Positions 771 to 42,061 of a stretch of 64,000 bases of DNA are shown in pieces. The stretch spans positions 86,924,001 to 86,988,000 of the forward strand of contig OX597822.1 of assembly GCA_951406725.2 (NCBI GenBank), in the 5' to 3' direction. Below the pieces are notes generated by a model. That model was given only the letters and a program-made list of their open reading frames with translations. It did no database searches and was not told the origin of the DNA. The stretch's first letter is position 1, and each line of letters begins with the position of its first letter. Source of the DNA: Octopus vulgaris (taxonomy: Eukaryota). A program made the translations under genes and the position numbers.

Positions 771-1117
771 AAGCTTCAGGATAAAGCATTTGTCGAGTAA
801 AGAGCATAATGTGAAACGAAATAATTGACAAGGGAACAGGAAATTACGTAGTGAATTTACTTCGCTTACACCTGTTTCTGCTATAAGATGCCGTGGATTC
901 AGAGCTGTGTGTTAGTACATCACCTCATAGATTCGTCAGAGCTTCTGATGCACAAGCATTCAGTTTTGAGTCTATGGAAACTCAGCAAATAAAGATATAA
1001 GCTTACGAGGTTCATTGCATAATTTCCTGTTCCTTTGTCAAATTTTTTTTTCCACATTATGCTCTGTACTCGATGATATTCTGAAGCATAAGAATATTAT
1101 TGAGTTCAAGCACCAGG
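771..1117 (-). mobile_element. Fold-back Penelope-like (pLTR-type) non-autonomous element with hammerhead motif
   Basis: Inverted arms 772-855 / 1011-1088; abuts (TA)n; hammerhead core on the minus strand just inside the left arm. Confidence 0.7.
864..942 (-). ncRNA. Minimal type I hammerhead ribozyme motif
   Basis: Minus strand: gcu-CUGACGA-[ucuaugaggugaug...caucuuauagca]-GAAAC-aggu-GUA-agc. Confidence 0.65.
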
Positions 1118-1147
1118 TTTTTAGTATCATTATGCCATTGAGAAATT

Positions 1148-1287
1148 ATGTATGTATGTATGTATGTATGTATGTATGTATGTATGTATGTATGTATGTA
1201 TGTATGTATCGTATTTATATATATATATATATATATATATATATATATATATATATATATATATATAGTCTACACACACACACACAC
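1148..1287. repeat. (TATG)n, (TA)n, (CA)n microsatellite cluster
   Basis: Direct reading. Confidence 0.95.
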
Positions 1288-1989
1288 TTCTATAAATATA
1301 TATGAACATAAATGAATACATGTATACATGTAATATATTTATATCTATATATATGTATGTAAATCATCGACTGTTGAAGAGGTTGCAAGAAGCAACGAGA
1401 ATTTTAGGAAAACTAAGTAAATGAGTGGAAATCGAACCGGTGAGCGTGTTAATTAAAACAGAACGACTCTCCCCAGACAATAAAATATGTATATAAATAT
1501 ATGCATGCATATATGTATGTATATAAATGTATATGTGCAGGAATTTGAATGTCTTTGAGTAAATGACGTCCGTACGTCAATTTTCCTATTTTTCTTCCTT
1601 TTCTCTCTCTATATATATATATATATATATATATATATATATATATAATATATGTACATATACCTCTCTGTGTTTGTCTTTCTATCTGTATGCACACGCA
1701 CATATGTATGTATGTGCGTGCGTGTCTTCATGGTTCGCTGATTACAAATAAAAAGTTTTCAAACTCGCTTGTTGCTTGTCGAGCAAAAGATTTCACTAGC
1801 AGTTTCTATAGTGTTGGCTTCGTAATATGATGGATACATCATTTCTGTTGAAGAAAACGAATTATACATATTGGCTGTTAGTAGCTTCATGAATTTGCAG
1901 TCTATTTAATCTTAATGAAATAGATACTAACTTGTACATTATAATGGGAAATATTTTTTTTTTACACGAAATTAACCAGAATAAATAAC

Positions 1990-2560
1990 AGAAGAAGCGA
2001 AGTAACATGAATAATTATTTTATCAATTTAGACTTATATAAGTGGTCGAGAGAGAGAGAGAGAGAGGTTTTACGAAAGTTCGTTGAATAATTTAGATTTT
2101 CGTTTGTCGTTCTTTATTTCGAAAGAAAAACAGATCTCATTTTCCGTGTGTTTATAATTCTTTCTTTCTATTTGGTCCGCTGTTTCTAGGACCATTTTCA
2201 TTCTGTGTTTCTTGTTCAGAGTTTTTTTTTTTTAGCTTCCGTTCAGTCGGTTGTAATGAGTTCCGTTCCGAAAGCAGAAACGGCCAAGTTCTTTCTTCTA
2301 TTTATTAGCCACGCTCGGAATATTATAACACGAATTCCAACTATTTTTTTTTGTCTATTTCTTAAAAAAGAAAAGAAAAAAGAAAAAGTGAATAAAATTG
2401 AGAATTGGAAAGAAATTAATGAACATGTAAAAAGTTTCGTATTAACTTCCCTGGAGTTGTGAACTAAAACTGATGCTGGAATCGGTGAAGATAAATTAAC
2501 ATGTGCTCAGATTTAAAAACATGTCCCAAAGAATCGATTAGCGTTTTCATTCCACTTTGT
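1990..2560. promoter_or_regulatory. Candidate promoter / first-exon region
   Basis: Repeat-free, many intact CpGs compared with the CpG-depleted remainder, (GA)n tract at 2048-2066. Inference only. Confidence 0.35.
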
Positions 2561-3409
2561 TGTGTAGCAAATATATTTGGTAATATTTAATAATATTTCA
2601 AAATTTATATTCTAGCACCAACGAAGAATATATATTTCATTCTTCTTTGTATTAATTTTCTTGAAAGGATGTTATTAATATTATTCATATCATATAGATA
2701 TCAATTAACGTTGCATAAGTCCACAGGGAAATGACAAATAGGCAGCAAATAATTTTCGAAACATGTTCTTGGAAGTAGAAGAAGCACTTTATACTTTTCG
2801 CTCTACACCTTACACACACACACACGTAATATACACATACGTATATATATATGTATATGTGTTCATCTTTTCTGTGACTTTGTTAAAGGAGAAAGGGTAT
2901 TAATACACACACGCATACACATCTTATAACGTCTGTGTTCCATGATGGCATGGGTTAGACACACACGTACTTTTCCGTGACTTTGTTAAAGTAGAAAGAG
3001 TATAAAGCACACACACACTCACACACGCATGCACACGCGTGCGCGCACACACATATATAGGAAGAGAGAGAGAGAGAGGTCCATGTTCCATATTAGAATA
3101 TATCGCTTGGAATTTGAAAGGAACCGATGTGTCCAAGGACTATCATACAGCAGCTGACTGTTTCGGCATGGTTTCTATGGCTGGATGCCCTTACTAATGC
3201 CAACCACTTTACAGAGTGAGCTGGGTACTTTATACATGACACCAGCACAGTTAAGATCACCATGCAGCTGGTAGGACAACAAACCCAGAGGAAGGTGGGG
3301 GTCGACTTTATGCTCGAAATCCTTAGAAAGTGTAAGTTGTCTTATTCAAGCATGAGCTGACTTCCACCATACATGTGTGTGTGTGTATATATATATATAT
3401 ATATATATA

Positions 3410-40815: not shown

Positions 40816-41269
40816 ATATATATATACAGCAAGAAGAAAATGGAAGGGATACAGAACTAGTATGCATCAACTGTTAGACATTATATTATGTCTTTTATTT
40901 ATTCTAAAACATTTATGAGAATAAATACATATGTAAAAACTGTGTATTACATACATACATACCAGTATTATTATTACTCTTCTTATGTACTCATTAATAG
41001 GAATAATGTACTGTACCTACTGGTAAGTAATTATGTATATATATATATATATATATATATATATATATATATATATTACGGAGATGTATCGCATAGCAAG
41101 TAACTATCTGATTGTGTGCTGAAACGAAAACAATTGCATGGAAGGTATATATATATATATATATATATATATATATATATATATATATATATATATTATA
41201 TGTATGTGTATATGTATATTTATATATACATGCATTAGCCCTCTGAACTTTTTTGACCCTCTTTTAAAC

Positions 41270-41392
41270 TCTCTGATGAAGCCTAGAGGCACACCCAATA
41301 CCCTAATTTTATCTACTGATCACTACAGAACACTGAAGAGATGGAAATAACATGTAGGGTATTGTGACCTCTTGGCAGAAACGGCCGTAAGA
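41270..41392 (+). ncRNA. Type I hammerhead ribozyme with long stem II and palindromic GGCC loop III
   Basis: ucu-CUGAUGA-agccuagaggcacacccaauacccu...aggguauugugaccucuuggca-GAAAC-GGCC-GUA-aga. Confidence 0.82.
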
Positions 41393-41514
41393 AACCGTTC
41401 TTTTTCTATTCTATGAATTACTGGTACGTATGTATGCAATACACAGTCTTTACATATGTATTTATTCTCATAAATGTTTCAGAATATATAAATAGACATA
41501 ATATAATGTCTAAC

Positions 41515-41833
41515 GTGGAGGCGCAATGGCCCAGTGGTTAGGGCAGTGGACTCGCAGTTGTAGGATCGCGGTTGTAGGATCGCAGTTTTGATTCCCAGAC
41601 CAGGCATTGTGAGTGTTTATTGAGCGAAAACACCTAAAGCTCCACGAGGCTCCGGCAGGAGATGGTGGCGATCCCTGCTGTACTCTTTTGCCACAACTTT
41701 CTCTCACTCTTTCTTATGTTGGCCTGCTCGCTTAGCCAGCGGGGTGGCATCATTTGAAGGCTAAAACAATGCGAAGTGCATTGTGACCAGCGATGTGTAG
41801 CAACATCTGTTAGCCTGGTCAGTCACGGTGATC
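41515..41833 (+). mobile_element. Full-length tRNA-derived SINE family E with 9-bp TSD
   Basis: TSD atgtctaac at 41506-41514 and 41834-41842; A box tggcccagtgg; internal tandem duplication of gttgtaggatcgc. Confidence 0.92.
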
Positions 41834-42061
41834 ATGTCTAACAGTTGATGTATCCCCTCCATTTTCTTCTTGCTGTATAATTTAAGGGTAAATCACTTTT
41901 TACTCTTGGCCAGTTACTACATTCAATAGTGAAATTGCCGCACAATAACCAGCACTTGGGTATTAATAATTGAGTACAGTACCAGCAGCATATTGCATAG
42001 TCAGTATCCCTAGGTTGGATTCACAAACTCTAACTCTCACTGAATTATATATTATATATAG

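Follow-up and report, generated by a model that had tools for sequence, protein, structure and literature searches.

Hammerhead-bearing fold-back elements beside (TA)n tracts of Octopus vulgaris as probable insertion remnants of Hydra-type Penelope-like retrotransposons

The 64,000 nucleotides of Octopus vulgaris DNA analyzed here (the window; GenBank assembly GCA_951406725.2, contig OX597822.1, positions 86,924,001 to 86,988,000 of the forward strand) contain four short elements, E1 to E4, which belong to four families, F1 to F4, and each of which combines a predicted self-cleaving hammerhead RNA with an inverted arm. We propose, with a probability of about 0.88, that they are insertion remnants, namely the 3′ ends of Hydra-type Penelope-like element (PLE) retrotransposons. 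The initial annotation had taken them for non-coding PLE derivatives or retrozymes mobilized in trans, which does not hold for E2, E3 and E4, whose sequences run upstream into open reading frames (ORFs) for a reverse transcriptase (RT) with a GIY-YIG endonuclease (EN); E1 has the same anatomy and is likely of the same kind. The fold-backs are products of insertion, with junctions that vary between loci. The element type itself is already known: hammerhead-carrying PLEs of the Hydra clade that insert in (TA)n have been published, among them an Octopus member, so that the reservation made in that annotation, that the families might simply be the ends of PLEs of a known kind, largely applies.

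The link to coding copies is clearest in F3. Among 30 loci, ORF, untranslated region (UTR) and hammerhead follow one another unbroken, with 90-100% identity, in nine places, reaching at least 780 nt upstream of the predicted cut site. Locus L392 holds a complete copy consisting of hammerhead, tail, a 907-aa ORF, 3′ UTR and hammerhead, with its two cut sites 3,682 nt apart, to which E3 is 94-95% identical over its body and 89% over its tail. In a sister subfamily, about 76% identical to E3, four hammerheads together with three long frames are arrayed in tandem, the unit repeating every 3,624 nt (L390+391). Full copies are ordered pseudo-long terminal repeat (pseudo-LTR), tail, ORF, UTR and pseudo-LTR, or form 3.6-kb tandems, and the hammerhead motif lies inside the pseudo-LTR. 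Stop-free frames of at least 885 aa hold 31 of the 150 F3-lineage matches listed. An 899-aa open frame of this lineage is found at G000:C9:86538800-86539492, on the same contig and about 385 kb from the window.

The other two coding families are represented by decayed copies. For F2, a decayed RT, linker, EN and hammerhead region are collinear in L231, and EN lies upstream in L230, the two loci being 77% alike over the stretch. For F4, L328 has RT and EN remnants, about 2 kb of shared UTR with internal microsatellites, the hammerhead region and an inverted hammerhead arm, and L336 is a second locus collinear with decayed RT and EN. Judged by motifs and alignment, RT followed by GIY-YIG in a single ORF is thus intact in F3 and decayed but collinear in F2 and F4. 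The linkers of the L328, L336, L230 and L231 ORFs include triplet repeats in frame, (AAT)n and the like, from which the Asn-rich inserts of F3 likely originate.

An ORF upstream of F4 in L123 was considered as the F4 master and rejected because only one of 30 of its loci contains F4 sequence; it belongs to a separate family, which is very young (717 aa; nearly all of the 150 scored matches are listed at 99%) and is inserted in the internal TA tract of F4. At L177:40-2190 (+) a very young Hydra-type family with 150 scored matches genome-wide has intact 717-aa ORFs with RWK, DKT, CxCX5C, CxxC and CxH; by eye it is near Hydra-1_Obim, its two fixed 3′ ends are separated by about 74 nt, and in its hammerhead-like motif the core is a variant, CCGAAGA (C in place of U4), and the triplet is GUU. 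Other Hydra-type elements are nested in the internal microsatellites of F4, or lie just upstream of them, in L123 (an F4 copy) and L029/L127, so that the 3′ UTRs of PLEs supply targets for later PLEs. A protein search returned 420 relatives, nearly all without a name, among which the lone informative name was that of a mis-annotated Argonauta hians protein. Most of the 120 relatives listed come from contigs of 2.3-3 kb in public assemblies, a length close to one element unit, with which collapsed tandems or circles would both fit.

According to Craig et al. (2021, PMC8557442), elements of the Hydra clade are characterized by RWK, DKT, a CxCX5C linker, absence of CCHH, CxxC, CxH, hammerheads and insertion in (TA)n; inverted truncated copies and a one-sided tail are given there as general features of PLEs, and a complete Hydra-1_Obim of Octopus bimaculoides is listed with a hammerhead. 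The elements described here share with that clade RT plus, at the C-terminus, GIY-YIG in a single ORF, DKT, an RW motif, CxxC and CxH at the EN end, a type I hammerhead near the 3′ end, (TA)n insertion, 5′-truncated inverted copies and a one-sided tail. DKT is present in F3 and F4; F3 has RIRWL, a variant of RWK, and the N-terminus of F2 was not recovered. At the EN end F3 has CNLC or CALC and CPH or CTH (CxH is lost in one of four copies), F4 has CMLC and CFH, and the decayed F2 has C*LC and CNH. CCHH is absent as judged by eye, and the CxCX5C linker is kept in F2 and F4.

There are also several differences. The roughly 30 Hydra motifs listed have a short stem II, whereas it measures 49-98 nt in the window, where the 4-nt segment between GAAAC and GUA is mostly palindromic; the tails are about 60-170 nt long here and 30-40 nt in the Hydra clade; the unit is 3,624-3,682 nt in F3 and about 4.7 kb for F4 in the decayed L328, compared with generally less than 3 kb in Hydra elements, which is a tendency; and none of the four window motifs matches, by eye, the hammerhead listed for Hydra-1_oBim.

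How the copies were inserted can be read from F3, for which 64 loci were collected through exact matches to the 37 nt that follow the cut site (of 105 such matches in the genome, 100 were listed), so that at least one arm must contain these 37 nt and shorter arms are under-counted. The 64 loci comprise 92 arms with two fixed 3′ ends, at about +65 and +218 behind the cut site, each of which lies, upstream of the ORF start, within a short TA run of the element. The 153 nt between them, the tail, form the leader into the next ORF in tandem copies; in two-armed loci the tail is present on exactly one arm in 28 of 28 cases, and of 41 tails, 36 have TA at their end. The two-armed loci of F2 are likewise one-tailed (9/9). 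Tails were found in all four families, and a two-tailed pair in none of them. Arm lengths range from a few nucleotides to more than 2 kb, into the ORF. A stricter re-analysis of F3 (23 TA/tail pairs and one complex locus) gave no repeated junction; one was common to two loci once the earlier sample was pooled. Since each of the 23 two-arm loci has a junction of its own, the fold-back unit is evidently not what is copied.

A footprint of cleavage in the genome, in the form of 5′ truncations piled up at the cut site, was looked for and rejected: of the 80 resolved 5′ ends of F3 arms, 73 are found upstream of the cut site, and a single one comes within 2 nt of that position. Seven near-site junctions were inspected, of which two (E3 in the window and L190) are compatible with the exact cut site, and an apparent pile-up at +43 to +47 turned out to be a mixture of very short arms and small-deletion variants. 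In several F3 pairs both arms end almost alike (−29/−29, −244/−244, −127/−126), as if joined via short palindromes.

In the window, a scan with the descriptor NNN-CTGANGA-stem-GAAAC-N4-GTH-N′N′N′ found four type I minimal hammerhead motifs and no more, at the places named in the initial annotation (Table 1). All have a stem I of 3 Watson-Crick base pairs and the cut triplet GUA, and the core CUGANGA / GAAA / NUH as well as stems I and II, by which a minimal type I hammerhead is recognized, are present. Dinucleotide shuffles of the whole window (200) gave a mean of 0.015 motifs, and 200 of the window stripped of microsatellites a mean of 0.02, with a maximum of one in both cases. The 150 of 189 Rfam matches listed include no hammerhead family, only weak, microsatellite-driven matches. 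In E4 stem II folds clearly better than shuffled sequences (z −4.9).

The genome search covered the 2.8-Gb assembly of 227 contigs. All four families are multicopy, with 585, 1,070, 1,585 and 631 first-look candidates for F1 to F4, of which 40 per family were scored. The pattern CTGANGA-N40-70-GAAAC-N4-GTA has 27,488 matches compared with 533 for the reversed pattern, a density of about one motif per 100 kb; three motifs of this 40-70 nt stem II class lie in the window, where about 0.6 are expected per 64 kb (P about 0.025). Closer inspection of the initial 30 hits of contig 1, two of which are partner pairs, revealed a stem I of at least 3 bp in 21, a self-complementary loop in 25, an inverted arm at 14, and (TA)4+ within 350 nt downstream in 25, the background for the latter being 28%; the 30 hits fall into 15 sequence clusters. 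The connection with PLEs, the plurality of families and the preference for (TA)n, all proposed in the initial annotation, are upheld, and copies joined to RT and GIY-YIG ORFs, for which it suggested a search, exist for F2, F3 and F4.

Three details in that annotation's account of the elements call for revision. The inverted arm is present in all four, and all four extend beyond the limits originally drawn, by a one-sided tail. The cut site was held to be at the start of the inverted tail, as is the case in E3; in E1 and E2 the inverted arm begins upstream of it, by about 55 and about 100 nt, and in E4 30 nt downstream. The preference for (TA)n flanks stands overall, with the exception of E4, which has only about five TA units at its ends and its long (TA)n tracts inside.

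Several observations weigh against the assignment to Hydra-type PLEs or against parts of it. F1 could be tied to no ORF in the 60 + 30 + 11 loci scanned (overlapping sets); the sequence that its copies share peters out about 260-300 nt upstream of the motif, and the traces seen are RT scraps on the same strand (one locus) and a Hydra-like piece in inverted orientation (another locus). The one-tail pattern is less regular in the older families, in which tails often go undetected: F4 has five one-tailed and seven untailed pairs, and F1 one and two, respectively. F3 does not have the CxCX5C linker; in its place the four intact copies examined all have an Asn-rich linker of 148-157 aa with 0, 0, 0 and 1 Cys. 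Pfam gave no significant match for the intact ORFs, and GIY-YIG was matched with E 0.028 on a fragment of another family; the domains are therefore called from motifs and from an inspection by eye against the published Hydra alignment. Stem II folds no better than shuffled sequences in E1 to E3 (z −1.0, +0.7 and −1.7). Between F3 subfamilies the hammerhead core is nearly invariant, and 7 of 17 base pairs are altered on both sides, which none of 500 shuffles reaches, a figure not to be read as a probability, since it comes from ten related, hand-picked sequences, one distant member of which gives several of the differences, and the control ignores relatedness. F3, which keeps DKT, RW, CxxC and CxH, would work like a Hydra element and lacks one listed feature; from its sequence we file it as Hydra-like and not as a strict member of the clade, the comparison with Hydra-1_Obim having been made by eye.

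Could the short fold-backs instead be non-autonomous elements in their own right, whose transcripts PLE proteins put back into the genome in trans? Short, non-coding copies are in the majority, non-autonomous PLE derivatives have already been published, and for F1, where this would be most plausible, homology fades some 260-300 nt upstream of the motif and the loci scanned hold no master ORF; the one F3 junction that recurs at two loci also points this way. Against this stand the 23 two-arm F3 loci, arm lengths that vary so widely, and the coding copies of F2 to F4, which together make such a mode of propagation improbable. Far less probable still is an origin as non-LTR retrozymes, i.e., tandem hammerhead repeats of 150-450 nt expressed as circular RNA. 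The type I motif in an animal genome would suit them, and descent of retrozymes from PLEs has been proposed; animal non-LTR retrozymes are likewise short non-coding repeats with type I hammerheads and are related to PLE pseudo-LTRs (Cervera and de la Pena 2020, PMC7229834; bioRxiv 10.64898/2026.07.22.740005). According to these sources retrozymes are short tandem repeats, whereas the window elements are single or inverted ends of coding elements. No tandem array with a period of 150-450 nt covers the elements of the window, the copies are single or inverted instead of short tandem units, and in F3 the direct hammerhead repeats recur every 3.6-3.7 kb and enclose an ORF.

A further possibility concerns the microsatellites, namely that the elements do not merely target (TA)n but generate the load of the genome, the RT adding or expanding TA repeats upon insertion. 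One-sided TA runs at young insertions have a median of 21 units (26 values) compared with a background whose median is 10 and whose length-biased mean is 24, and at one filled site the repeats total 223 nt, the median spacer in 94 alignments to empty paralogues being 53 nt. A preference for long tracts would give the same numbers, however, so that long flanking TA runs fit either that preference or growth on insertion. Empty paralogues already carry a TA/TG tract: of 73 F3 loci, six gave paralogue pairs, of which one site (counted twice) was informative, and at this one clear empty site the tract predates the insertion. In the window, moreover, only 9 of the 65 pure (TA)≥5 tracts (228 of 1,502 nt) adjoin element ends. 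We therefore regard generation of the microsatellites as unlikely, if somewhat less so than mobilization in trans, and the close tie to the microsatellite load supposed in the initial annotation is not borne out as a causal one.

For Hydra-type PLEs, the pairs of arms might arise by twin priming, to the details of which, worked out from the junctions, we give roughly even odds. An RT-EN protein, by analogy with Poseidon of the anole acting as a dimer, would nick (TA)n on both strands, and the two 3′ ends would pair with short AUAU runs (a few TA base pairs), so that cDNA synthesis would begin at two sites inside a transcript that is tandem or circular; mostly, each of the cDNAs would stop within a few hundred nucleotides, and the two would then be joined head to head. 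The copied RNA would be uncut or re-ligated because the inserts read through the cut site. The hammerhead, with 1-2 bp in stem III and a palindromic loop, fits the weakly active class that cuts only as a dimer and is predicted to process tandem transcripts into units; the single copies in the window are likely inert remnants. According to Frangieh et al. (2024, PMC11167929), Poseidon of Anolis carolinensis cuts and extends both strands in vitro, its tail is bounded by two internal sites at which RT starts, and in vitro insertion does not need hammerhead cleavage. It is of another clade, with start sites inside the ORF, as opposed to the F3 ends in short TA runs upstream of the ORF, and its RT start lacks homology to the target, unlike the AU pairing proposed here, which is a further point against the scheme. 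More tentative, and rather doubtful, is the idea that the target is chosen by RNA-DNA pairing at short AU runs, in a telomerase-like manner, and not by the cysteine linker, which the F3 lineage would have lost without giving up (TA)n as its target, a dimer priming twice from fixed sites of one uncut or circular RNA.

The hammerheads themselves resemble those in the pseudo-LTRs of metazoan PLEs as described by Cervera and de la Pena (2014, PMC4209133) in their short stem I and weak, palindromic stem III, and in occurring mostly as single motifs in truncated copies, with some opposite-strand pairs 100-700 bp apart; stem II is longer here. Minimal hammerheads are stated there to cleave weakly and only as dimers. 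The counts given in the same source, obtained with other descriptors, are about 2,000 for Schistosoma mansoni, 4,000 for coelacanth and 9,000 for Xenopus tropicalis, compared with about 27,000 here for one narrow pattern; since up to 120,000 retrozyme hammerheads are reported from axolotl (bioRxiv 10.64898/2026.07.22.740005 / PMC7229834), this is no record. A literature search of incomplete coverage, so that any of these may be in print, returned no report of the motif count, the long stem II, the strict tail rule, a linker-less (TA)n family or twin priming in PLEs, and the main text of a 2026 repeat annotation of Octopus vulgaris mentions neither ribozymes nor the Hydra clade.

The value of the system lies in scale and tractability, with some 27,000 motifs in many families and young, intact copies. 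These copies allow a test of how inverted repeats and tails of PLEs arise, given the strict rule of one tail per pair found here, and F3 without its cysteine linker allows a test of whether the linker directs targeting to microsatellites. On the tentative reading above, in which RNA-DNA pairing chooses the target, the intact ORFs of this genome, present by the dozen, and its long-stem hammerheads, about 27,000 in number, would make the role of the hammerhead in PLEs and the origin of their inverted repeats directly testable.

Table 1. Features of the four elements in the window (cut sites are predicted; tail limits are approximate)
Feature	Position	Strand	Remarks
E1 short-ended arm, family F1	771..945	−	3′ end abuts (TA)n 572-770
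E1 hammerhead	864..942	−	GCT-CTGACGA-54 nt-GAAAC-AGGT-GTA-AGC; predicted cut 3′ of 867
E1 inverted arm	946..1088	+	begins ~55 nt upstream of cut site; decayed 3′ half of motif
E1 one-sided tail	1089..1150	+	then (TATG)n/(TA)n 1147-1266; 11/29 other F1 loci have tail downstream of arm
E2 short-ended arm, family F2	3656..3895	−	degenerate TA/TG repeats at 3524-3655 as flank; approximate 5′ limit
E2 hammerhead	3753..3826	−	TCT-CTGATGA-49 nt-GAAAC-TGAG-GTA-AGA; predicted cut 3′ of 3756
E2 inverted arm	3896..4097	+	contains second hammerhead, C3 to T, at 3926-3999
E2 one-sided tail	4098..4192	+	then (TA)n 4192-4243; tail in 16/28 other F2 loci
E3 short-ended arm, family F3	18727..18938	−	94-95% to pseudo-LTR of complete 907-aa RT-EN element; abuts (TA)n 18699-18731
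E3 hammerhead	18778..18857	−	TTC-CTGAAGA-55 nt-GAAAC-ATGT-GTA-GAA; predicted cut 3′ of 18781
E3 inverted arm	18939..19029	+	27-nt hairpin copy, jump to cut site (±1 nt), 65 nt behind cut
E3 tail, 153 nt	19030..19182	+	pseudo-LTR-to-next-ORF leader sequence of tandem copies; then (TA)n
E4 short-ended inverted arm	40823..40967	−	begins 30 nt behind cut site; ends in ~5 TA units
E4 long arm, family F4	40968..41879	+	3′ UTR remnant, internal (TA)n 41032-41076 and 41146-41228, hammerhead, 3′ end
E4 hammerhead	41270..41392	+	TCT-CTGATGA-98 nt-GAAAC-GGCC-GTA-AGA; predicted cut 3′ of 41389
Insert inside E4, presumably SINE-like (SINE, short interspersed nuclear element)	41515..41842	+	9-bp duplication at 41506-41514 and 41834-41842
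E4 one-sided tail	41880..42050	+	ends in short TA run; 3′ limit approximate; tail in 8/29 other F4 loci

A near-perfect hairpin (18907-18969) lies at the inversion point of E3, and in E4 a 69-nt insert (41077-41145) separates the two TA tracts, with 79-84% matches in four other fetched loci. Elsewhere in the window, 20760-20987 is a fifth remnant, motif-less, with 74-80% similarity to the 3′ end of a further family with hammerheads (L340), that adjoins a short TA run, and 37749-37934 (−) is a decayed GIY-YIG fragment, 35% identical to the F3 protein (E 7e-5), which on that strand lies downstream of (TA)n 38074-38104.

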